DNA from: Clostridiales bacterium UBA7568
GTDB lineage: Bacteria; Bacillota; Clostridia; Oscillospirales; CAG-272
Reading direction: 5' to 3'
DNA length: 64,000 nucleotides
Assembly (NCBI GenBank): GCA_002479075.1
Contig: DLLG01000017.1
Coordinates: forward strand, 60,198-124,197
Under the pieces are notes generated by a model, which saw nothing but the letters and a program-made list of their open reading frames with translations, ran no database searches and was not told the origin of the DNA. The translations under genes were made by a program, and so were the position numbers. Shown here piece by piece: positions 2,907 through 60,621 of the stretch. Positions within the stretch are counted from its first letter, which is position 1, and the number at the start of each line of letters is the position of its first letter.

Positions 2907-3563
2907 TTATTTCACCTCGTCATCATCGTCATCGTCGTCATCGTCATCATATTCTTTCTTGTTTACTATCGCGCGGACAAGATTTGCAAGCGGAACGCCG
3001 AGAACAAACAGTATCCAAGAAACATCCCAGCGCATAGTCGCAAAGCTGATTATAAAGTATGCGGTTGTTATTCCCGTCCATACGGCGCCGCCGATCGCCG
3101 AGTTTTTCTTTCTGTCATTGCTTTTGATAACTATCGCCGCATAGAGACAGTCGACCGCGGCAGCGGCTATGAAAATTATCCAGGAATACGCCCACGCTCC
3201 GCTTACAAAAAAGCTGTAAAGAAGATAAATGCATACAACAAGCGGCCAAAGAACCGAAGAAAATACTTTGCATTTCTTTTTCTCGCGCTTATATTGCTTT
3301 TCGTACATTCTTTCAAACTGCTTTTCGTAAGCATAAGAATATTTGACCTTTTCTCCCTTGAGATCCGAAACTATGCCGGAAAGGTCGCCTCCGCTCGATA
3401 TTGCAACGGCATACGCCTCCTCATCAGACTTGCCTTCGCTTTTGAGATCCGCATATTTATCGAGAAGGTTTGACAGAATCTCGCCCTTTATGTTCTCCGC
3501 CCTTTCGCTCTTCGGCACGTCGCGGAACACGCTTTCAATGTAATCTCTGATTTTGTTCTCCAT
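2907..3563 (-). CDS. Membrane protein with N-terminal PadR-associated (permease-prefix / DUF1700-like) helical domain and poly-Asp tail
   Basis: The N-terminus MENKIRDYIESVFRDVPKSERAENIKGEILSNLLDKY resembles DUF1700-type sensors. It has 3-4 TM segments and ends in ten consecutive Asp residues. Stop and start codons abut both neighbouring genes. Confidence 0.6.
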   Translation of the reverse strand: MENKIRDYIESVFRDVPKSERAENIKGEILSNLLDKYADLKSEGKSDEEAYAVAISSGGDLSGIVSDLKGEKVKYSYAYEKQFERMYEKQYKREKKKCKVFSSVLWPLVVCIYLLYSFFVSGAWAYSWIIFIAAAAVDCLYAAIVIKSNDRKKNSAIGGAVWTGITTAYFIISFATMRWDVSWILFVLGVPLANLVRAIVNKKEYDDDDDDDDDDEVK

Positions 3564-4175: not shown

Positions 4176-6035
4176 TCATTCCGTCGCAAAGGTCGCCTTC
4201 GGCGATCCGAGATATACAACGAGCGCCGAAAGTCTGCAAGGCATCGTAACAGAAGTTTTGACCTCCCCTCCGACCTTTACGGAAAGCGTCTGTCCTTCGC
4301 TCAGGCTCATAGTTGTCTTTGTGCCGACCGATGCAAAGCCGGAGCAGTTCATCGCTTCGCTGCCCATTCCGTTTGCGGGGCAAAGCGCAAGCACGGTACC
4401 ACCCGAGAAGGTATATCCGTTTTCGGTGTCTATCGAAGAATCGCCGCCCGATGTGCTTACAACGGTTATCTCGCCGCCCGCAAACAGGATTCCCTGATAT
4501 GAAGTGCGGCTGTTGGAATCGATGCCGTCTCCGCCGGCGTAAATATAAACCTTGCCGTCATTGAAGGTTATTCCCGTGCCGGATGTCGTCGTTGCGTTGA
4601 TGCCGTCATCCGAGGAGACGATTGAAATATCGCCGCCGTCAATTCTGACGAACGTACCCTCCAAGCCCTCGTAGCAGCCCGTTATGTCAATTTTACCTCC
4701 TGATACGGTGAGCGTGCCGTCTGCGTGAACGGCATCATCCTTTGAAAAGAGGGTGAGTGTGCCGCCGGAAATCAGGATGTTGCCTGTTGAAGTCTCTCCG
4801 TTTTCAAGCGACGTCCCGCTGTTTGCGTGAATCGAGTCGTCATACGAGGTCAGAGCAAGCGTGCCGCCGGAGATATGAATTTCGTTTCCGGCTTTTATGG
4901 CTTTTGTTGATATCTCGCTCTTATCGCGGTTTCCGTCCGTCATTCCGCCGGGACCGCCACCGAAATCCCCGCCGCCAGGTCTTCCGCCTCCGCCAAAGCC
5001 CCCGAAGCCGCCTTGGTTACCTCCGCCAAAGCCGCCCCGATCGCCGCCAAAGCCCCCGCCCTGACCGCCGAATGAAGCCCCTGCATTGCTTACGCTTGCA
5101 GAGGTGAACTCCGCGCTGCTCTGCTCCGCCGTCTCCTCGGAATAAGGCGAATAGCGTTCCGTAAAGATATTCAGGACAGCCTCGTCGCCGATGTCAACGT
5201 CGTACGCCGCGTCTATTCCGTCACAGGCGGCATAGATATTGACGGTTCCACCCGTTATCGAAACGATACCTCTCTGGTTGCCCTTTGAGGAAACGTCCGT
5301 GTTCTTCGTTTTTATCCCGTCTCCCGATCTTGCAACGAGCGTAATTACTCCGCCGGATATGGTTACGCTGTCGTTGCCCTTGAGCGCATTGTCCTCGCAG
5401 GTTACGGAGAGAGTGAGATTTTTGATTTTGAGATCATCCTTTGTGTGTATACCGTTGTTGTTTGACGAGATGACCGTCAGCTCGCCCTTGCCGCCGATAT
5501 CGAGGTCGCATTTTGCATAAACTGCGGCAGATACCGATGTTTCGTCATCGGAGGCGAGCGCCGCTCTTGTGTCATATATATAATTTTTCGTCTCTTTCTT
5601 TGCGGTCAGAGTCACCTTGTCTCCGGAAAGGATCATAATCGGGTTTTGCTCGCCGCTGAACAGTTTGACGCCGCAAAGCTCAAGTTCGAATTTATAATCG
5701 TCGCCGGCGTCGATTACGATCTGTCCGTCAAATTCGCCGGATACGGCGCAGACGGTATTCTCCGTTATTCCGGAGAAGGTCAGCGTCTTTCCGTCAAAGC
5801 TCCAGCAATTGTCCGTCCCCTCGGAGCAGGTAATTTTCAGGGTGTTTACGTTTTCGTCAAGGTCGTCGGGAACGTCGGTTTTGTCGGGATCGACGGTTTC
5901 CGCAGCGGTTGCGGAGGTTGTCGTCTGAGCCGGATTTTGGCTCTCCGTGTTCTCTGTGCCGCCGCCCGTCGAGCAGGACGCAAGAACGGTCACAAGCAGA
6001 CACGCCAAAAGTAATATTGACAATAGTTTTTTCAT
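4176..6035 (-). CDS. Secreted lipoprotein, Cthe_2159-like carbohydrate-binding beta-helix protein with Gly-rich linker
   Basis: Start at 6035 is preceded by aaaggagg. Lipobox LLVTVLASC. Repeated GG.(I/L)T(I/L)...DD.(I/L)H.(N/D) beta-helix rungs. Run GGQGGGFGGDRGGFGGGNQGGFGGFGGGGRPGGG. Confidence 0.65.
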   Translation of the reverse strand: MKKLLSILLLACLLVTVLASCSTGGGTENTESQNPAQTTTSATAAETVDPDKTDVPDDLDENVNTLKITCSEGTDNCWSFDGKTLTFSGITENTVCAVSGEFDGQIVIDAGDDYKFELELCGVKLFSGEQNPIMILSGDKVTLTAKKETKNYIYDTRAALASDDETSVSAAVYAKCDLDIGGKGELTVISSNNNGIHTKDDLKIKNLTLSVTCEDNALKGNDSVTISGGVITLVARSGDGIKTKNTDVSSKGNQRGIVSITGGTVNIYAACDGIDAAYDVDIGDEAVLNIFTERYSPYSEETAEQSSAEFTSASVSNAGASFGGQGGGFGGDRGGFGGGNQGGFGGFGGGGRPGGGDFGGGPGGMTDGNRDKSEISTKAIKAGNEIHISGGTLALTSYDDSIHANSGTSLENGETSTGNILISGGTLTLFSKDDAVHADGTLTVSGGKIDITGCYEGLEGTFVRIDGGDISIVSSDDGINATTTSGTGITFNDGKVYIYAGGDGIDSNSRTSYQGILFAGGEITVVSTSGGDSSIDTENGYTFSGGTVLALCPANGMGSEAMNCSGFASVGTKTTMSLSEGQTLSVKVGGEVKTSVTMPCRLSALVVYLGSPKATFATE

Positions 6036-6048
6036 AATGAAGCCTCCT

Positions 6049-6723
6049 TTAAAGTTCATTTTCGCCAAGATCCGCGCGCGAGCAACAGATCTCAAGGTTT
6101 CCGTTGCGGGTGCGTATTGCGTCAAGCATCGGCTTTTCGCATACCGCATTCTTCAGCTGCACACGATACGTCAGGCGGAACATACTGCCCATATTCGTCG
6201 ATTTGACAGTCTCCAGCTCCGCTCCCTCCGTATATTCCGAGAAAATATCGTCAAAGACCGAAGTATAATCAAGAGATTCGGGGATTGTGATCTTGACGAG
6301 CTTTTCTCTCCCCTTCGATCGTCCCGCCTTTGTGGCAAATTTGCCGAAAACAAAGAGCAGAATGCCGCTTGCGATAAGAAATATCGCGCCATATGCGATG
6401 TATCCCATACCGAAGGCAAGCCCCGCAGCCATCGCAATGAAGATTATTGCAATTTCCCTTGCCGTGCCGGGGGCGGAACGGAATCGCACCAAGCCGAAGG
6501 CTCCCGCAATGGCAACGCCGACACCGAGATTTCCGTTTACGAGGGCAATCACCGCCGCAACCGTCATCGGGATGAGCGTTGTCGCTATTGCAAAATTCAA
6601 TGACGACTTTGATCTGTAACACGCCAGCACCGAAAAGACGGCGCCGCAGGCAAGCGATGCGATCAATACGATAAAGAAGCTGACTGCGGCAACGGTTCCG
6701 CCGCTGAAAATGGATTCAAACAT
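6049..6723 (-). CDS. DUF4956-like membrane protein
   Basis: Four to five N-terminal TM segments and a soluble C-terminal domain. This is the usual partner of bacterial VTC-domain genes. Confidence 0.6.
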   Translation of the reverse strand: MFESIFSGGTVAAVSFFIVLIASLACGAVFSVLACYRSKSSLNFAIATTLIPMTVAAVIALVNGNLGVGVAIAGAFGLVRFRSAPGTAREIAIIFIAMAAGLAFGMGYIAYGAIFLIASGILLFVFGKFATKAGRSKGREKLVKITIPESLDYTSVFDDIFSEYTEGAELETVKSTNMGSMFRLTYRVQLKNAVCEKPMLDAIRTRNGNLEICCSRADLGENEL

Positions 6724-40040: not shown

Positions 40041-42491
40041 ATGAAGCGAAAAATAATTCTGTCAATTGCGCTGGCATTATGCTTTATAGCGTGCATCGCA
40101 ACGCTTTGCATATCTGCGGCGAACAGCACAACGATTACAAGCAAAAACGGTCTTTATAAGTACACCGTCGGCGAGGACAAAAAAGCAACGATCGTTGCTT
40201 ATTCCGGCACGGACGAGACAGTACTGACGATAAGCCGCATAGACGGTAAATATCCCGTCGGGGCTATCGGAGACTCCGTTTTTGCGGGAAATACAAAGCT
40301 CAAGGAGGTTACGATATACTCCTCCGTAACCAAGATCGGTTCCGGCGCATTTATGGGTTGTACCTCCCTTGAAAAGGTCTCGTTTCACGGCGACTGCAAC
40401 ATAACCGAAATCGGAGGCGACGCTTTCTATTCCTGCGTCTCTCTCAAAGAATTCAAATTCTCAAAAAAGCTGGAAACCATCGGTAGCAGCGCATTTCAGG
40501 ATTGCTCCTCGCTTTCCCTTGATTTCTCGGAGGCGTCCGCGCTTTCCTCTGTCGGAAGCTATGCCTTTGCAAGCTGTGCAACGGCAAGCGGAAAAACGTT
40601 TACCGTTGAAATTCCCTCCTCGCTTACAGACATCGGCTACGGCGCATTTTACGGTTGCTCCGGCATAACGGGATTCTGGGTTGATAAAGGCAACACCGCC
40701 TTTTCTTCCGAGGACGGCGTTCTCTATTCGGACGGCGGCAAGCAGCTTGAGATGTTCCCCGCCGCAAAGGAGGCTCTCAGCGACGGTTGCTTTACGGTTC
40801 CCTCCGGCGTTGAAAAGATCGTCGGCGGAGCGTTTGCCGGCGCAACCACGCTCGAAAAGGTAGTCATCGGCGAGGGCGTAAAGGAAATCGGCGGAAACGC
40901 ATTTTATTCCTGCAAAAATCTGAAAGAGGTTTCTCTGCCCGAATCGCTTGAAACAATCGGCTCTTACGCATTCCTTGATTGCACCTCTCTCAAAAATATA
41001 ATCATTCCCGAAAACGCATTGAATATCGGCTCGTTTGTTTTCAGAGGCTGTCTCGGGCTCGAAACCGCATCTCTTCCGTCAAAGATGACGGAGATTCCGA
41101 TCGGTATGTTCGACTCCTGCACGACGATGAAAAAGATTACCCTGCCCGCGGGAATTACAAAAATATCTCAATACGCCTTCAACTATTGCACAAAGCTCAC
41201 AGATATAAACATTCCCAAAGGTCTGACAACCGTCGAGTCCTATGCGTTCAGATCCTGCATATCGCTCGAAAACATAAGTCTTGAAAACGTAACGTCTCTC
41301 GGCTCGTTCGTATTTCAGAACTGCTCGTCGCTTGAAAGCGTTTCGCTTCCGAAAATATCGGATATTCCGGCGTTTACCTTCTCCGGCTGCACCTTACTTA
41401 CAAACGTAACCTTTGCAAGCGAAATAAAATCAATCGGCGCTTACGCTTTCTTCTCCTGCGATGTTTTCGAAGGGCTTGAAATCACGCCTTCCGTCGTCTC
41501 AATCGGCGATTTCGCATTCGGAAAATGCGGAAACATAAAGAACGTCAGAATACCGAAAACCTTAAAGAATATCGGTATCGCCGTGTTCTATTCGTCCGGC
41601 GTTGAATCCGCTGTTATCGAAGACGGCTTCACCGCGGTTCCCCGCCGTATGTTCGAAGGCTGCAAGAAGCTCTCCTCCGTTACATTGCCGGACAGCATAG
41701 AGACAATATCCGCATCTGCATTTTCGGACTGCGTTTCTTTAAAGGACGTCGGCGAGTTGCCGAACCTGAAAAGAGTTGAAACCTGCGCATTCTCCGGCTG
41801 CCGCGAGCTGACAAGAGTTTATATCGGCTCTGAGGACACGACAATTACCTCCGGCACCTATTACGGTTGCGACGCGCTCACATCGGTCGTAATTCCAGCA
41901 AGAATCAAAAACGTTGAAGCTATGGCTTTTGCATATTGCACAAGCCTCACAACGGTAACATTTGAAGAAGGCACGGAGCATATTTCTTCAAATGCGTTTT
42001 CCGGTTGCACGAAGCTCGTAAAAATCTCTCTGCCGGAATCTCTGAATATAATCTCCTCCGGAGCGTTCTCCGGCTGCACAAAGCTCTCCGATCTCTCTGT
42101 TCCCAAGGGTGTTATATATATAGGAGACAACGCATTTGCTTCGACGAAATGGCTGATCGGCAAAAAGGATGATTTCGTTGTTGCCGGCGACGGCGTTCTT
42201 ATCAAATATCAGGGCAAGGAAACTCTGACGCTTGTCATTCCTTCGACGGTCAAACGTCTCCCGGCTTACTGCATTGCAGACGCAAGCGCCTCGATTTCAA
42301 CGATAATTATCCCGTCCAGCGTTGAATATATCGCAAAGGACGCTCTTGCAAGAAAGGTCCAGACGCAAAGCACAACAGGCGAAACCGTCACAAGCTACCG
42401 CATACGCTATGTGACGATATGCGCAAAGAAAGGCACATATGCGGAAGCCTTCTCTGACCACGATTATTATACCTTTGAAGAACTCAAATAA
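40041..42491 (+). CDS. Secreted BspA-type leucine-rich-repeat (LRR_5) protein
   Basis: Signal peptide, then more than 25 tandem ~23-aa units of the form I(P/G)..(V/L)..IG..AF..C..L. No sortase or choline-binding anchor seen. Confidence 0.8.
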   Translation: MKRKIILSIALALCFIACIATLCISAANSTTITSKNGLYKYTVGEDKKATIVAYSGTDETVLTISRIDGKYPVGAIGDSVFAGNTKLKEVTIYSSVTKIGSGAFMGCTSLEKVSFHGDCNITEIGGDAFYSCVSLKEFKFSKKLETIGSSAFQDCSSLSLDFSEASALSSVGSYAFASCATASGKTFTVEIPSSLTDIGYGAFYGCSGITGFWVDKGNTAFSSEDGVLYSDGGKQLEMFPAAKEALSDGCFTVPSGVEKIVGGAFAGATTLEKVVIGEGVKEIGGNAFYSCKNLKEVSLPESLETIGSYAFLDCTSLKNIIIPENALNIGSFVFRGCLGLETASLPSKMTEIPIGMFDSCTTMKKITLPAGITKISQYAFNYCTKLTDINIPKGLTTVESYAFRSCISLENISLENVTSLGSFVFQNCSSLESVSLPKISDIPAFTFSGCTLLTNVTFASEIKSIGAYAFFSCDVFEGLEITPSVVSIGDFAFGKCGNIKNVRIPKTLKNIGIAVFYSSGVESAVIEDGFTAVPRRMFEGCKKLSSVTLPDSIETISASAFSDCVSLKDVGELPNLKRVETCAFSGCRELTRVYIGSEDTTITSGTYYGCDALTSVVIPARIKNVEAMAFAYCTSLTTVTFEEGTEHISSNAFSGCTKLVKISLPESLNIISSGAFSGCTKLSDLSVPKGVIYIGDNAFASTKWLIGKKDDFVVAGDGVLIKYQGKETLTLVIPSTVKRLPAYCIADASASISTIIIPSSVEYIAKDALARKVQTQSTTGETVTSYRIRYVTICAKKGTYAEAFSDHDYYTFEELK

Positions 42492-42638: not shown

Positions 42639-42687
42639 ACAATAGTGGATGATGACGAAATCATCAAAAGCGAAAGGAGCTGATAAT

Positions 42688-42996
42688 TTGAATACACAAT
42701 ATAAAAAAGGCGTGCTTGAGCTTTGCGTTATGGCTCTGCTGAAAAAGCGGGACTGCTATGGCTACGAAATTTCCGAAACGCTTTCAAAGCAGATAGACAT
42801 AGCGGACGGAACGGTTTACCCGATTCTGAGAAAGCTCAAGTCAGACGGACTTCTGACAACCTATCTTCAGGAGGAGAGCGGAGGACCGCCGAGAAAATAT
42901 TATTCGCTGACAAAACTCGGAAAAGAAACATTTGAAAACGATCTGCGTGATTATCTTCAGTTTGCGCAGGCAATAAAGAATATATTGGAGGACTGA
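42688..42996 (+). CDS. PadR family transcriptional regulator
   Basis: A TTG start at 42688 lies 8 nt after aaaggag (the ORF-track start is 42649). Signature CVMALLKKRDCYGYEI...GTVYPILRKL...RKYYSLT. Confidence 0.85.
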   Translation: MNTQYKKGVLELCVMALLKKRDCYGYEISETLSKQIDIADGTVYPILRKLKSDGLLTTYLQEESGGPPRKYYSLTKLGKETFENDLRDYLQFAQAIKNILED

Positions 42997-42999
42997 AAA

Positions 43000-43713
43000 A
43001 TGAGAAGAAACGAATTCATTGAAACTCTCAAAGAAAATCTCGAAAGAAACGGCGTCCGTGACACGGGCGACATAATCGAAGAATACGAAGAACATTTTAC
43101 ATTCAAGCTTGCGGACGGATATTCGGAGGAGGAGATCGCCGCAAAGCTCGGTAACCCGAAAGCCATAGCCGCGCAGTATGCTCCCTCCCCCGCGGAAAGC
43201 AAAAAGAAAAATAAAGCGCTCGCGACGATCGGCGTCGGCGTTCTGGACTTCTTCTTCGGAATTTTCTGCATCCTGCTCTTTGCCTGGGAAATCATCGTCG
43301 CTGCTTTGACGCTCGCCTTCGGCGCGACTTCCGTATGTATGTTTATGGGCGGCAACATTGCAGGGGTGTCCCTTCCCGAAATGCCATATTATTGCGCCTG
43401 CATTTTCGGCGTAATGTTTATCGCTCTCGCCGTGCTCTCCGCGGTCGGAACGGTGTTTTTCTTCGGATTTATGCGTCAGCTTGTACGTTCATACAGCAGA
43501 TTCGTAAAAAATACACTCGGCAAAACGGCGCTCCCTCCCGTAACGGTTTATCCGCAGTTCTCCGCAAAGGTCAAGCGCACAATGCGCAGCATAGCGCTCA
43601 TCTCCGTAACGGCTTTTGCACTTCTTCTCATAGTCGGCTTTGCGGTTTCTGCGCTCTCCGCAGGATCATTTGAATTCTGGCACGTCTGGGACTGGTTCGA
43701 TTATAACGCATAA
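43000..43713 (+). CDS. DUF1700-like membrane protein (PadR-associated)
   Basis: N-terminal helical domain MRRNEFIETLKENLERNGV...EEIAAKLGNPKAIA followed by 4 TM segments. Confidence 0.7.
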   Translation: MRRNEFIETLKENLERNGVRDTGDIIEEYEEHFTFKLADGYSEEEIAAKLGNPKAIAAQYAPSPAESKKKNKALATIGVGVLDFFFGIFCILLFAWEIIVAALTLAFGATSVCMFMGGNIAGVSLPEMPYYCACIFGVMFIALAVLSAVGTVFFFGFMRQLVRSYSRFVKNTLGKTALPPVTVYPQFSAKVKRTMRSIALISVTAFALLLIVGFAVSALSAGSFEFWHVWDWFDYNA

Positions 43714-43728
43714 AAGAAAGGTTTTGTT

Positions 43729-44445
43729 ATGGACTGGCTTAATATAACTGCTCTGCTTCTGTTTATAATTGTAAACATCGCCGCATATACCGTCGGCAAA
43801 ATGTCCGAGGCAATGAGCGAAAAGCTCGTCCGCGCCCTGTCGCTCATCCTCCTGTGCGGAAATCTTTTGAGATATGTCGTCATTTATCCTCTGTTTTACC
43901 ACGTTATAAAGATTCCCGCGGAGTTTTCAACGCTCGCATATTTCATCGCCCCGCTGATACTTCTCTCCCGCTGGGAGAAAATAAATTGCTGGGCTGCATA
44001 TTCTTCGCTTATGGCGGGCTTTTTCTACTATATGACGATGATAGTTGCGGGGGAAACCATATACGGTGCCTCCTCGCGTACGGACACGGCAATCTCCCTT
44101 CTCTGTCACGGAACGCTTTATTTCTGCGGTTTTGTAACCATTACAAAAAAGCAATATGACCCCCGCGACGTATGGAAGCTGCTCGTCGGCATAGGCTATG
44201 TTATAATAAGGGCGAAAATGCTCCGCCCGATTGTCGCTGACGGAAACGGTATGCTTATATATCTGCTACTCGACGCCGTGCCGATAAAGCGTTTTCTCCC
44301 CGAGGAGACCTGGAAGGCTGTCGTTCCGATATATTATTCCGCAGTCATTCTCTTTCTTCTGGTAACGGCACTTTGCTTCTTCCATATAAGCGAAAGACAG
44401 TATAAAAAATTTTCACATCTCAGAAATTCGGAGAAAAAAGCATAG
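43729..44445 (+). CDS. Polytopic membrane protein (hypothetical, ~7 TM)
   Basis: Third gene of the PadR operon. No family recognised. Confidence 0.5.
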   Translation: MDWLNITALLLFIIVNIAAYTVGKMSEAMSEKLVRALSLILLCGNLLRYVVIYPLFYHVIKIPAEFSTLAYFIAPLILLSRWEKINCWAAYSSLMAGFFYYMTMIVAGETIYGASSRTDTAISLLCHGTLYFCGFVTITKKQYDPRDVWKLLVGIGYVIIRAKMLRPIVADGNGMLIYLLLDAVPIKRFLPEETWKAVVPIYYSAVILFLLVTALCFFHISERQYKKFSHLRNSEKKA

Positions 44446-44450
44446 ACATT

Positions 44451-44480
44451 AAAAAAACGCCCCAAAAGGGCGTTTTTGCT
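44451..44480. terminator. Bidirectional rho-independent terminator
   Basis: aacgccc-caaaa-gggcgtt, flanked by an A-run and a T-run, between convergent genes. Confidence 0.8.
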
Positions 44481-44789
44481 TTATATCTCCCAAATATTTT
44501 TCTTTATATCAACGTTACCTCCCGGAAGAAATGTTACCCCTTCCGCAAGCAAAAGCTCTCTCTGCTCTCTCCATCCCGGAACAAGTCTTCCGCAGGAGCT
44601 AACAACCCTGTGGCAAGGATAGCTGCCGTAAAAATCCGCCATACTCATCACCTTTCCGACAAGCCTTGAATTCCTGTCCCTGCCGATGAGCCTTGCGATC
44701 TGCCCGTAAGTTGCAACCTTGCCCTCCGGAATCTCTTCAACAACTGATAATATCTCATATATCAGCCGTTCGTTCAGTATTTTCCCCAT
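44481..44789 (-). CDS. MGMT-family protein (stand-alone methylated-DNA--protein-cysteine methyltransferase DNA-binding/active-site domain)
   Basis: IPEGKVATYGQIA helix-turn-helix and PCHRV active-site motif. Confidence 0.8.
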   Translation of the reverse strand: MGKILNERLIYEILSVVEEIPEGKVATYGQIARLIGRDRNSRLVGKVMSMADFYGSYPCHRVVSSCGRLVPGWREQRELLLAEGVTFLPGGNVDIKKNIWEI

Positions 44790-44827: not shown

Positions 44828-44904
44828 TTTTATTTTATCATAAACCAAAGCAAAAATCCATATGAACACAAAAAACGAACGGCAAGCCGTTCGTTTTTGA
44901 TTTG
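44828..44904. repeat. Left copy of ~77-bp direct repeat (terminator hairpin + -10 region)
   Basis: A 36-bp core at 44869..44904 (caaaaaacgaacggcaagccgttcgtttttgatttg) and a 15-bp core at 44828..44842 (ttttattttatcata) are identical to 46145..46180 and 46103..46117. The ~26 nt between the cores is diverged. Confidence 0.9.
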
Positions 44905-44966
44905 AATCTCCCGAAATGAGCCTTTCAGGACAGTTTTTTAATACCTCGCTATTTCTCTGCGAGCTG

Positions 44967-45884
44967 TCAGCTATCCAACTTGTTTCTTATGTCTTTAATC
45001 GTATCTCGGGTTTCCTCCGCAGCCTTGCGACGGCGTTCCGCTTCTTCGATGAGCCTGCGGCTTGTCTCTCGTCGCTCCTCGAGCCGTCTTTCCTCCTCGA
45101 ATCGGCGTATGTTCTCTCTTGAACGTTCTCTGCTCTCAACGACATACAAATTTATCGCTTCTTTTATGCTGTCCGCACGCATATCGCGTATGTATTCCGT
45201 AATTCTGTCAACCGCGTCGAAATATTTGTATTTTTCGGGCAGAATATCATATTCGGCTATAACCAGGTTCACTTCGGCAAGCTCGCGTTCCTGCTTTTCT
45301 ATCACAGGAAGGGCTGCCGCCTGCTTTAGCGACATTTCGTTTGCGTAATTCACCTGTTTTTCGTATTGGTTTTCAAGGTCTTTATTATATTCCCGGAGGC
45401 GTGCCGCCTTATGCTTTTTTAAGTATCGCTTACCTCTGCTTTTGTCTATAGAAGCTGTAATATTATCTAATATAGCACCGATAAGAGAAACCGCAAAAAA
45501 CGAAACAAAGCCTGCAATGACAAACGCAAGAATCAGGTCAATAACAAACATAATGATAAATGCCGTTGATGCCCCCCAATGCATCATCATCAGTACCGTA
45601 GATACAATTGCCGAAACAATCATTAAGACGTAATATAACGCTGAACCCATAAATTTTTTTATATTCTTCGGCTTATGCTTTTCATCATATTTCGCCAGAT
45701 TAGTATCCTTATCCCCTGCTTCCTCCGGCGCAACGTCACATTCTTTTCTTATCGGCTTTTTGCTCCCTTTCCGATATTCCTCTTCCCGCTTTCTCAAATC
45801 GTCAAGCGACGCTTCCAGCTTCCTCTGCCTTGAAAGGCTTTGCCTGAAATTCTGCAATGACGCAACCAAACTTCCTCTGTCCAT
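44967..45884 (-). CDS. Hypothetical coiled-coil / 2-3 TM / coiled-coil membrane protein
   Basis: The ATG at 45884 follows ggaggg. Charged heptad-like N- and C-terminal regions flank a hydrophobic core (ALYYVLMIVSAIVSTVLMMM...FVIAGFVSFFAVSLIGAIL). No family recognised. Confidence 0.6.
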   Translation of the reverse strand: MDRGSLVASLQNFRQSLSRQRKLEASLDDLRKREEEYRKGSKKPIRKECDVAPEEAGDKDTNLAKYDEKHKPKNIKKFMGSALYYVLMIVSAIVSTVLMMMHWGASTAFIIMFVIDLILAFVIAGFVSFFAVSLIGAILDNITASIDKSRGKRYLKKHKAARLREYNKDLENQYEKQVNYANEMSLKQAAALPVIEKQERELAEVNLVIAEYDILPEKYKYFDAVDRITEYIRDMRADSIKEAINLYVVESRERSRENIRRFEEERRLEERRETSRRLIEEAERRRKAAEETRDTIKDIRNKLDS

Positions 45885-45918
45885 ATCTTTCCCTCCGCTT
45901 GATAAAATTTTGATAAAA

Positions 45919-45948
45919 TAAAAAAGTGCGTGACTTGAAGCCACGCAC
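45919..45948 (-). terminator. Intrinsic terminator inside the 5' leader of the 44967..45884 gene
   Basis: On the minus strand: gtgcgtg-gcttcaagt-cacgcac followed by tttttt. It sits 35 nt upstream of the RBS. Confidence 0.65.
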
Positions 45949-46102
45949 AAAAAACGCACGCTCCAAGTTACCACACAACATTTTATAGCCGGTTGCCGAG
46001 CAAAAAGCATACAAAAAGGGAGCATACATTTTTATCAAATTAAAAATGTATACTTTTCGCACTGTCATATCGGCATAAAAACGCTATTCTGTTGTGTGGT
46101 AA
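45949..46102 (-). promoter_or_regulatory. Structured 5' leader (candidate riboswitch or attenuator aptamer domain)
   Basis: A 13-nt closing helix pairs ttaccacacaaca (46090..46102) with tgttgtgtggtaa (45968..45980). It encloses the nested helices atagc/gctat and tgccga/tcggca, and a 10-bp hairpin atacattttt/aaaaatgtat. Confidence 0.5.
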
Positions 46103-46180
46103 TTTTATTTTATCATACGCCGGAAAGGTTGTCAATCCCGAACGCAAAAAACGAACGGCAAGCCGTTCGTTTTTGATTTG
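46103..46180. repeat. Right copy of ~78-bp direct repeat (terminator of the ABC importer operon + -10 region)
   Basis: See the left copy at 44828..44904. The hairpin acgaacgg-caag-ccgttcgt has T-runs on both strands. Confidence 0.9.
46107..46135 (-). promoter_or_regulatory. Sigma-A-type promoter of the inserted cassette
   Basis: On the minus strand: TTGACA, 17-nt spacer, TAAAAT, with an upstream TG. Confidence 0.6.
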
Positions 46181-59835: not shown

Positions 59836-60621
59836 TCACTTTTCCAGCACAACGATTTTGTTTGATATATTCCTCACAAACCCGATCTTTCCGAGCAGCT
59901 TATATATCGAAACAAATTCCGCCATTCCCTCCGTAAGGCTATACTCGCAGACAAAGCGGAAATCCGGAAGAAGCTCCGCCAGCGCTTTGCCGTTCTTTAT
60001 GCCCCAGCTGAACTTTGCGTGACTTCCTTCAATGGACTTCTCCTTGAACCGCTTTGCGACCGTCGGGTTCATCGTCTCGACAAAGACCGTCGCCCTGCCG
60101 AATCTGCCCGAAATAACTTCAAAAATACGCTTCACGTCCGCCTCGCAGAGATACATAGTAAGCCCCTCGATGATAATAAGCGCAGGCTTATCCGTCTCCT
60201 CGATTCTGCAACCCCAATCATCCATTGCAGACATAGCGATCTGCGAAATTTTCCCGCTCTCCGGCAGAAACCTTTCCCTTATGGCAATCGTCTCCGGAAG
60301 ATCAAGGTTGTACCAATGAGAATATCCTTTCACACGATAGCAACGTGTGTCCAGCCCGCAAGCTATATTGACCGTAACGGCATCCGGATTTTTCTCAAGC
60401 CATTCGGATGTCAACCTATCAAGGACAATCGTCCTCGCAACAACGCCGCTGCGCATAGCCGAGTCCCTCTCGGCAAGGGAAAAATCGTAGTCAAGTCTGC
60501 CGATGATTTCTTCGGCTTTTTTATCACAGATAACGCCTCTCGTTCCGCTCTCCCTGGCACGCGCATAAACCGTTTGCAGCATTGTCTCCGGAACACCCGT
60601 CAGTTTTACTTTGTCACCCAT
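59836..60621 (-). CDS. Class I SAM-dependent methyltransferase, TcmP / LCM-like (copy 2)
   Basis: Motifs VNIACGLDTR, WYNLDLPETI and IIEGLTMYL. Confidence 0.72.
   Translation of the reverse strand: MGDKVKLTGVPETMLQTVYARARESGTRGVICDKKAEEIIGRLDYDFSLAERDSAMRSGVVARTIVLDRLTSEWLEKNPDAVTVNIACGLDTRCYRVKGYSHWYNLDLPETIAIRERFLPESGKISQIAMSAMDDWGCRIEETDKPALIIIEGLTMYLCEADVKRIFEVISGRFGRATVFVETMNPTVAKRFKEKSIEGSHAKFSWGIKNGKALAELLPDFRFVCEYSLTEGMAEFVSIYKLLGKIGFVRNISNKIVVLEK

Follow-up and report, generated by a model that had tools for sequence, protein, structure and literature searches.

A repeat-bracketed cassette of promoter, leader RNA and gene, present or absent behind an ABC operon terminator in Clostridiales bacterium UBA7568 and its relatives

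This report concerns a 1276-bp segment in the genome of Clostridiales bacterium UBA7568 (GenBank assembly GCA_002479075.1). The segment lies in a 64,000-nucleotide (nt) stretch of contig DLLG01000017.1 (forward-strand positions 60,198 to 124,197); we refer to this whole stretch as the window, and coordinates are those of the window unless another locus is named. Read along the minus strand, the window contains a lysine riboswitch, the genes of an ABC transporter operon (solute-binding protein, or SBP, permease and ABC ATPase), a hairpin (hairpin R), a promoter, a structured leader RNA, a ribosome-binding site, an open reading frame (ORF) for a 305-aa protein, a second hairpin (hairpin L), a weaker promoter and a gene of the MGMT family. 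Our interpretation, to which we give a probability of roughly 0.7, is that the promoter, the leader, the gene and its 3' untranslated region (UTR) make up a self-contained cassette of 1276 bp, that this cassette is a presence/absence polymorphism at the hairpin of the ABC operon, and that its gene is expressed by read-through under the control of the leader.

The segment is bounded by a direct repeat of 41 nt (44864-44904 and 46140-46180), which a search of the window for repeats found to be 98% identical, with a perfect core of 36 nt and a spacing of 1276 bp. The core consists of a perfect 13-bp inverted repeat (AAAAACGAACGGC/GCCGTTCGTTTTT) that is followed by a T-run on the minus strand. The right copy (46140-46180, minus strand) is the intrinsic terminator hairpin of the ABC operon, with a stem formed by 46174-46162 and 46159-46147 and the T-run after it; the left copy (44864-44904, minus strand) is a duplicated terminator hairpin that now serves as the terminator of the 305-aa gene. 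A 28-mer that covers the hairpin is present twice in the window as compared with 0.00 expected copies, and so chance is ruled out for the hairpin. The 15-mer TTTTATTTTATCATA, which occurs at 44828 and 46103 with a spacing of 1275 bp, is weaker evidence than the hairpin; with up to two mismatches allowed it has three matches, 0.32 being expected, and the third, at 45909-45923, is inverted. Between the hairpins (44905-46139) the GC content is 0.425, the 0.6th percentile for segments of that length across the 64 kb (mean 0.490, standard deviation 0.024), and the GC content at third codon positions is 0.467 in the 305-aa gene versus 0.55-0.62 in the ABC operon.

Much of this had been noticed in an earlier reading of the DNA made from its letters alone, which we call the sequence-only reading. 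Its perfect 36-bp and 15-bp cores, with periods of 1276 and 1275 bp, come out at the same positions in the repeat search. It was also right that the right copy is the terminator of the ABC operon followed by a promoter with a perfect -35 TTGACA, and that the interval is richer in AT than its surroundings.

The relatives used for comparison are contigs that encode members of the 305-aa protein family and contigs that encode an identical MGMT protein. They display three main states of the locus. In state A (L017, L018, L020, L023 and L024), the ABC ATPase gene is followed by 116 nt with one hairpin, then by the MGMT gene and a convergent gene for a 238-aa protein, and the cassette is absent. State B, with the order ABC, cassette and MGMT, is found in the window, in L019 (100% identical over 10.3 kb) and in L022. 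In state C (L001, L014 and L015), the cassette is followed directly by the 238-aa gene and there is no MGMT gene. All related loci, with or without the cassette, have the right-copy hairpin 3' of the stop codon of the ABC ATPase gene. The left-copy hairpin stands 3' of the cassette wherever the state is B or C, and state A has a single hairpin altogether. The flanks of the relatives in the three states are 92-98% identical, identity among the three is 96-98% in the 238-aa and HAAS genes, the MGMT genes of state A are 97-99% identical to that of the window, and the states are interspersed among close relatives. Such high flank identity across states indicates a polymorphism within one species complex of uncultured gut Clostridia. 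It is unlikely that the state-A contigs are assembly collapses of the repeat, because they come from independent assemblers and have a clean junction.

The locus is thus an insertion/deletion polymorphism with an empty-site allele, since relatives without the segment carry one repeat copy at the junction. The sequence-only reading had predicted an empty site of this kind (ABC terminator, promoter, MGMT and a single repeat copy), and this is what the five state-A loci have. It had also set its insertion against two other outcomes, a hairpin that is a dispersed repeat, and a two-copy arrangement in all relatives around an insert of host-like composition. As described above and below, the empty-site alleles exist, the composition is atypical and the hairpin is found only at the ABC/cassette locus. 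The third allele, with the cassette present and MGMT absent (L001 and L014/L015), and the leader family are not visible from the window alone.

The empty site also locates the junctions. In state A the intergenic sequence runs from the ABC stop codon through GCAAATCAAAAACGAACGGCTTGCCGTTCGTTTTTTGCGTTC to the junction point and continues as ATATGGATTTTTGCGTCGGTTTATGATAAAATGAAAGAC...ATG, and a promoter of the left type stands directly 3' of the hairpin, with ...TTTTTTGCGTTC followed at once by ATATGGATTTTTGC...TATGATAAAATGAAAG. In the window, the right copy reads ...TTTTTTGCGTTC and then GGGATTGACAACC..., and the left copy reads ...TTCAAATCAAAAACGAACGGCTTGCCGTTCGTTTTTTGTGTTC and then ATATGGATTTTTGC.... 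The empty-site sequence therefore places both junctions right after ...G[C/T]GTTC and limits the duplication to about 43 nt. Stated differently, 1276 bp added to state A give state B, in which both ends carry the same stretch of about 43 nt (CAAATC, the hairpin and G[C/T]GTTC), and the empty site keeps one copy of it. The identity between the left and right copies drops from 100% to about 50-60% straight after GTTC, precisely at the empty-site junction.

The two promoters have different owners by these sequence comparisons: the left one is the resident MGMT promoter of state A, and the right one is the leader's own and part of the cassette. The cassette promoter (46107-46135, minus strand) is of the sigma-70 type and has a -35 element TTGACA at 46135-46130, a 17-nt spacer and an extended -10 element, TG-a-TAAAAT, at 46115-46107, with 11 of 12 consensus matches, and the right copy of the 15-mer (46103-46117) lies within this promoter region. 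The resident MGMT promoter region (44828-44863, minus strand) has a weak -35 element, the same extended -10 TG-a-TAAAAT and the left copy of the 15-mer (44828-44842). In state A the sequence of this region stands directly 3' of the single hairpin, with a G in place of one A of the 15-mer, and in fact the 15-mer is matched at only 14 of 15 positions in the MGMT promoter both of the state-A genomes and of the state-B locus L022. The leader promoter is recognizable at other chromosomal sites as TTGACAA...GGCGTGTGATAAAAT (L025 and L009/L011); the version before the leader of L025, which is at a different site, is TTGACAAGCACTTTGGCGTGTGATAAAAT, that of the window is TTGACAACCTTTCCGGCGTATGATAAAAT, and a distant species (L048) has an identical TATGATAAAATAAAATT before its leader. 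Two similar extended -10 boxes and one substitution thus account for the perfect 15-mer match of the window. The 15-mer was accordingly rejected as part of the duplication, on the evidence of the junctions and of the leader-family promoters.

These observations bear on the history that the sequence-only reading proposed, in which a target of about 77 bp, comprising terminator plus promoter, was duplicated and a promoterless leader and gene were put behind a copy of the MGMT promoter. The perfect 15-mer at the -10 position of both promoters, with its 1275-bp spacing, and the roughly 60% similarity in between (GGATT...TTT..GG) speak for it. However, the right promoter belongs to the leader family, as TTGACAA...GGCGT[A/G]TGATAAAAT before the leader in L025, the similar TTGACAA/TGTGATAAAAT promoters at the L009/L011 sites and the shared promoter of L048 indicate, and both the G in the left 15-mer and the fall in identity at the empty-site junction contradict a longer duplication. 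We therefore regard this history as very improbable. What stands of it is that the 41-43 nt of the hairpin are duplicated and that the left copy is positioned in front of the MGMT gene; the promoter is not duplicated, and the notion that the gene landed between the original promoter and the MGMT gene fails, because in empty sites the left-type promoter directly follows the hairpin.

A mobile element of the insertion sequence (IS) or miniature inverted-repeat transposable element (MITE) type, or of the integron type, with the hairpin as its recombination site, would be another way to explain a perfect palindrome at both ends of the cassette. The leader and gene are indeed found at three or more different chromosomal sites among related genomes. 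In L009-L013, which are Acutalibacteraceae of a different lineage, they lie between NrdD/NrdG/TspO genes and two tRNAs/KsgA; in L025-L027, an outgroup with an ABC gene 82% identical, MGMT directly follows ABC, and the leader precedes a short homolog of 177 aa (28% identity, E=3e-11) between PadR and a leucine-rich-repeat (LRR) gene. Separately, L008 has the ABC gene, then the cassette and then a convergent LRR gene. But the hairpin does not accompany the cassette: it is not at the cassette flanks in L008 (downstream), L025 or L009-L013, and at the other sites of the cassette neither the ABC hairpin nor other flanking direct repeats were found. The hairpin 28-mer is present in 16 of the 67 fetched loci, always at the ABC/cassette locus, with a single copy in state A and two copies in states B and C. 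It has five matches in 241 million metagenome records, all at the 3' end of either the ABC gene or the cassette, and no matches in viral contigs. A dispersed repeat of the REP (repetitive extragenic palindromic) or MITE type was thus found neither in the window nor in the 67 loci nor in the metagenome records. As the hairpin terminates the ABC operon even in genomes without the cassette, it belongs natively to the operon, and the derived copy is the downstream one. Moreover, the gene tables of the syntenic loci, which rest on Pfam domains, list an FtsH-like AAA protease, the ABC genes, the 238-aa protein, HAAS, PadR, an LRR protein, TauE, BacA and FtsK, and no transposase, integrase (IntI included) or recombinase within about 6 kb, as the sequence-only reading had said of the window. 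For all of these reasons we consider a mobile element largely refuted. A phage origin was likewise rejected, after scans of viral contigs for the leader core and for the hairpin gave zero matches each.

Transposon target-site duplications share with the cassette the direct repeats that flank an inserted segment and the one-copy empty site; the cassette repeat differs in its length (41-43 nt versus typically 2-14 bp), there are no terminal inverted repeats, and neither a transposase in the 6 kb nor flanking repeats at the other sites were found. Integron cassettes with attC hairpins are also single-gene units with a palindromic site at the 3' end. The unit described here differs in having its own promoter and a leader, its hairpin has the perfect G+C stem and the U-tract of a terminator, no integrase is near, and the hairpin is not with the cassette elsewhere. 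There is also a resemblance to the way in which genes are gained and lost when short direct repeats in intergenic DNA recombine, which includes homology-facilitated illegitimate recombination in transformable bacteria. The resemblance lies in the single accessory unit bounded by repeats, the precise empty site with one copy and the lack of mobile-element genes. The differences are that the repeat in this case is a functional operon terminator, and not a dispersed element of the REP or BIME (bacterial interspersed mosaic element) type, and that it is confined to one locus; the mechanism of such recombination is here a putative one.

We infer the following order of events and mechanism. The second hairpin copy would have been created when the cassette joined the locus, through out-of-register or homology-facilitated recombination at the hairpin, possibly from a donor arranged like L008, in which the ABC gene, the hairpin and GCGTTC followed by GGGATTGACA are already in place. 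The two hairpin copies would then permit precise loss of the cassette by recombination between them, with no dedicated recombinase required. MGMT keeps its own promoter, and the cassette supplies its own.

Several points weigh against this account. The polarity is debatable, as a second outgroup (L068, L071 and L072) has the ABC gene, the hairpin, 60 nt and the terminator of the LRR gene, with neither MGMT nor the cassette, and state A could, on its sequence, also be derived from state B by deletion between the repeats. Any mechanism for the 41-43-nt duplication at the ABC/MGMT locus is hypothetical. In addition, a more complicated and older history is hinted at by a third, diverged module. 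The last 20 or so nt of the 3' UTR of the cassette gene (44905-44966, minus strand), CATTTCGGGAGATTCAAATC, resemble the 3' end of the MGMT gene (alignment A3), and a three-way alignment identifies the MGMT 3' end plus terminator (44446-44500, minus strand; stem 44453-44477), which abuts the stop codon of the convergent 238-aa gene, as a third, diverged copy of the module of gene 3' end, hairpin and T-run. This module suggests, from sequence likeness, that there were earlier rounds of copying.

The possibility just mentioned deserves to be spelled out. If state B were ancestral, RecA-type recombination of the 41-nt repeats would remove exactly 1276 bp and yield state A, and a separate deletion of about 424 bp would yield state C. 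Recombination between the repeats would produce exactly the junction seen in state A, the relatives that carry the three states have flanks 92-98% identical, and state C equals state B minus the approximately 424 bp between the T-runs of hairpin L and of the MGMT terminator; the missing segment lies between two CGTTTTTT runs and the junction reads ...CGTTCGTTTTTTTGTATGTCTATGC. Nevertheless, an earlier event that created the second hairpin would still be needed, and the outgroup L025 has MGMT directly after ABC and the cassette elsewhere. Deletion alone is therefore a serious but distinctly less probable explanation than gain of the cassette at the hairpin. The two views are not exclusive, and one gain with repeated loss is likely.

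Flanking repeats of this kind do not appear to be a general property of the leader units, as none was a regular feature around such units in 12 other loci. One possible case is L034, where two 43-nt terminator-like hairpins (3095-3137 and 5453-5495), 86% identical and with compensatory changes in the stem, lie 2358 nt apart around a unit of leader plus ORF. This pair may, judged from sequence, be a second case of terminator copying. A variant of the ABC terminator hairpin is seen at about 160-205 of L008, where the stem is extended (GGCACGCC CGAA GGCGTGCC instead of GGC TT GCC). As a natural example, the repeat-bracketed indel of the window is a clean case of a single accessory gene that is gained or lost without mobile-element machinery, with an operon terminator as the recombination substrate; it is useful for the study of strain-level variation in gut bacteria, and it is tidy but ordinary in kind.

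The leader RNA is about 185 nt long (45917-46102, minus strand), and a nucleotide profile search (nhmmer) matches it at 46101-45917 with E=4e-40. It is closed by a 13-bp stem, P1, in which 46102-46090 pairs with 45980-45968; it has a long inner helix (46060-46048 paired with 46012-46000) around an invariant core (46032-46010), an invariant GGAGC (45964-45960), and a terminator stem (45948-45926) whose T-run reaches to about 45917, all on the minus strand. Loci whose proteins share only 45-80% identity have almost the same leader, and a compensatory change is seen in its closing stem. The core AAAATGTATGCTCCCTTTTTGTA, which is 24 nt long and invariant, is present in 40 stretches of species-representative genomes. 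By their titles, all but one of the carriers are uncultured Clostridia, Eubacteriales, Oscillospiraceae, Acutalibacteraceae, Lachnospiraceae or Ruminococcus, the remaining one being a Sphaerochaetaceae (L045), and the sources named for them include ruminants and a human (Hadza) sample. Each copy of the leader has a near-consensus promoter, a P1 of 12-17 bp that exists in several sequence versions, and an intrinsic terminator.

The sequence-only reading had described a long structured leader, and the window copy indeed folds with a minimum free energy (MFE) of -67 kcal/mol and a z-score of -6.7. Covariation was examined in an alignment of 42 sequences (A1), with a structure composed of P1, the long inner helix around the core, a UUUUU/AAAAA helix and the terminator. 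In this structure 94.3% of the cells are paired. Compensatory changes are present in 18 of 38 pairs, as compared with 10.2 +/- 1.5 in shuffled alignments (0 of 500 reach 18) and 5-8 in slid controls, and they are seen in P1, in the inner helix (7 of 12 pairs) and in the terminator (5 of 9). A hairpin proposed by RNAalifold (columns 64-69/94-99 of a MAFFT alignment) was set aside because it has zero compensatory changes, and it was replaced by the longer inner helix; as a modelled alternative pairing, it is possible.

The alternative fold involves the 3' strand of P1, which can pair with the 3' arm of the terminator while GGAGCUACG pairs with the 5' arm. In the family as a whole, this antiterminator covaries too: it has six compensatory pairs and a paired fraction of 95.2%, with 28 cells showing compensatory change as compared with 10.0 +/- 4.7 in shuffles and 0-10 in slid controls. 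When the 3' strand of P1 is left free, the tail is predicted to fold into the antiterminator at about -25 kcal/mol (MFE) in 10 of 12 members. Within the inner helix, the predicted structure leaves unpaired an invariant stretch of 16 nt, UGUAUGCUCCCUUUUU, which by its sequence could pair with the invariant GGAGC in a GCUCC/GGAGC contact, neither side of which varies. Finally, the leader is bracketed by a perfect 13-nt inverted repeat, TGATAAAATAAAA/TTTTATTTTATCA (45911-45923 and 46103-46115), which matches the terminator tail with the -10 box; it is probably an AT-rich coincidence and it is not conserved in the main subfamily.

The leader is a well-supported structured RNA family that corresponds to no family in Rfam 15, and it was found in none of the literature searched, either by topic or by core sequence. 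With the whole window as query, Rfam 15 returned only the lysine riboswitch, which is elsewhere in the window; when the leader region was scanned at E<=10, the best overlapping match was L20_leader, with 15.8 bits as compared with a threshold of 58.7 bits. None of ten other members of the family reached a gathering threshold, and the best score for L029 at E<=10 was 20.3 bits versus a threshold of 50 bits.

As to its role, the leader has the architecture of a riboswitch-type attenuator, in that P1 governs a conserved and covarying choice between terminator and antiterminator. Terminator and antiterminator are mutually exclusive and linked to the presumptive sensor domain, and the leader is directly upstream of an ORF. 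From its sequence, it looks like a riboswitch-like, cis-acting transcription attenuator. When P1 is formed, the terminator would form; when the 3' strand of P1 is free, it would pair with the 3' arm of the terminator, GGAGC(U/G)... would pair with the 5' arm, and transcription would continue. In the window only 30 nt separate the T-run of the leader from the ATG, which leaves no room for a separate promoter, and so the 305-aa gene must rely on read-through of the leader terminator. This arrangement is widespread, as 31 of the 42 leader copies have a ribosome-binding site and an ORF of at least 50 aa that starts 11-61 nt past the T-run, with no space for another promoter.

The genes behind the leader are diverse. 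Ten or eleven of the 31 downstream ORFs encode Cys-rich peptides of 55-90 aa (..ITGVELTPG..CLGNGEQGFECCCDECDY..LCFPEF) with no Pfam or NCBIfam family, and these peptides, with ORFs 13-20 nt past the terminator, are the commonest type of gene behind the leader (L029, L032, L035, L036, L043, L049, L055, L056, L063, L067 and others). About 17 others are predicted membrane or lipoprotein-like proteins, including BspA-like LRR, DUF898, SHOCT and RHS/DUF2963 repeat proteins. Leader units also occur in tandem with a spacing of about 270 nt, each with its own promoter and terminator (L054 at 5789-6496 on the minus strand, L048, L059, L052 and L050). Most of these arrays end in an ORF, and decayed ORF remnants lie between the copies.

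Some of these properties would equally suit a free-standing, trans-acting small RNA, whose invariant C/U-rich loop (UGCUCCCUUUUU) would seed on Shine-Dalgarno regions and for which the downstream ORFs would be incidental passengers of read-through. Each copy has a strong promoter and a strong terminator, tandem copies occur, and the predicted structure has the invariant 16 nt of the inner helix unpaired. L054, with three leader copies, each with promoter and terminator, and no ORF, fits such an RNA. A further point against attenuation is that a P1 of 12-17 bp is unusually long for a ligand-gated stem. It must be added that attenuation is here argued from sequence and predicted folds. On the other hand, a trans-acting RNA would not account for the placement of ORFs behind 31 of 42 copies with no space for a promoter, a conserved and covarying antiterminator would be purposeless in an RNA that needs only to terminate, and the decayed ORFs left between tandem copies point to a secondary origin of the orphan copies. 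We therefore favour cis-acting attenuation with occasional orphan copies, and a trans-acting role is unlikely, though it is a live rival.

Riboswitches and other attenuating 5' leaders of Firmicutes, such as the lysine riboswitch (RF00168), resemble the leader in having a promoter-proximal domain closed by a P1 stem, a terminator just before the ribosome-binding site and an exclusive antiterminator that uses the 3' strand of P1, and the leader covaries in all of these helices. The leader differs in that it has no Rfam 15 match, in the length of its P1 and in the presence of some copies without an ORF. Furthermore, the genes behind it are not metabolic, but uncharacterized membrane, lipoprotein, LRR and Cys-rich peptide genes, and so the gene context provides no metabolic clue. 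One might speculate, with somewhat less than even confidence, that the leader represents a riboswitch class not described before, or else an attenuator that depends on a factor, with a regulon of envelope and secreted proteins, including the 55-90-aa CCCDxC peptides, in uncultured gut Clostridia (Oscillospirales-like metagenome-assembled genomes), and that promoter, leader and ORF form a portable unit, shuffled from gene to gene and from site to site, the locus in the window having been caught mid-event. In either case, a structured RNA with a built-in switch between terminator and antiterminator, present in at least 40 species never cultured, absent from Rfam and placed before genes almost all of unknown function, is of interest. 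Orphan attenuators have repeatedly led to new ligands or signalling pathways, and the leader provides an experimental handle on the regulation of surface and secreted proteins in poorly known members of the gut microbiota.

The gene of the cassette (44967-45884, minus strand) is preceded by a GGAGGG ribosome-binding site and encodes an all-helical membrane protein of 305 aa. The layout is an N-terminal coiled coil, two transmembrane (TM) helices at about residues 75-135 and, at the C-terminal end, a long helical region that is conserved and contains an invariant DMRADSIKEAINLY, and an AlphaFold model (pLDDT 81.7) is likewise all-helical, with the two TM helices between long helices. Both the description of the sequence-only reading, coiled-coil ends around 2-3 TM helices, and its statement that no known family fits agree with this. 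The best match in Pfam has E=0.012, which is under the cutoff, NCBIfam has none, the PADLOC (E=0.007) and PHROG (E=0.0065) matches are weak and confined to TM segments, and the best PDB sequence (E=0.7) and Foldseek PDB (E=3.2) matches are coiled-coil noise only. The family comprises 36 clusters among 5.8 billion proteins, none of which has a Pfam domain; a profile search of 1.84 billion representatives found 402 relatives, many of which share only the C-terminal module, and ten remote relatives sampled in Pfam share no named domain.

The alignment of the family (A2) has a conserved N-terminal region and a highly conserved C-terminal region (EYDILPEKYK..DAV..I.EYIRDMRADSIKEAINLY), whereas the TM segment (45430-45659 in the window) cannot be aligned between subgroups. 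The variants of the C-terminal tail are reassorted among subgroups, which indicates that the gene is a mosaic. The variable TM segment and the reassorted tails together suggest, by sequence comparison, diversifying selection or frequent recombination. A related pattern is seen in L014-L016, where the flanks are 96-98% identical to the window and the leader plus the 5' two-thirds of the gene lack detectable DNA similarity. In L014 (5830-6770), L015 and L016, at the site equivalent to window 46128-45260, unrelated sequence with a different 5' region takes the place of the leader and of the N-terminal/TM part, and the encoded protein (P0033) is 43% identical. This is an allelic replacement inside the cassette.

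Short-read assemblies often break at the hairpin repeat and at the leader palindrome (AAAAATGTATGC...), as in L006, L007, L002, L003 and L016, which are Logan contigs of 1159-1367 nt. Such breaks leave the cassette as an isolated contig of about 1.2 kb, and the artefact could hide cassettes of this type in metagenome surveys.

The neighbouring genes in the window are of more familiar types. The ABC ATPase gene is at 46940-46182 on the minus strand. The lysine riboswitch (RF00168, 48644-48808, minus strand, 86.5 bits) heads the operon of SBP_bac_3, permease and ATPase genes, 2.7 kb from the leader, and so the transporter is probably a lysine-regulated amino-acid importer. The MGMT-family gene (44481-44789, minus strand) is a variable neighbour, being missing from state C (L001, L014 and L015). 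It encodes a protein of only 102 aa that shares the DNA_binding_1 domain (PF01035, E=1e-20) with the MGMT/Atl family and, different from that family, is without the N-terminal domain. Its score with the NCBIfam model ogt, 43.7 bits, is under the cutoff of 46.4 bits. The label 'Atl' was rejected for this protein, which retains the active-site motif PCHRVV and so is not an Atl-type protein lacking the cysteine. More than 5,000 similar short MGMT-type proteins are in the database.

Beyond the MGMT gene lie PadR, a HAAS-domain protein and the 238-aa multi-TM protein (42649-44445, plus strand). This trio is missing from L008 and L068/L071/L072, and so the wider region is variable too. Adjacent to it is a gene for an 816-aa BspA-like leucine-rich-repeat protein (40041-42491, plus strand).

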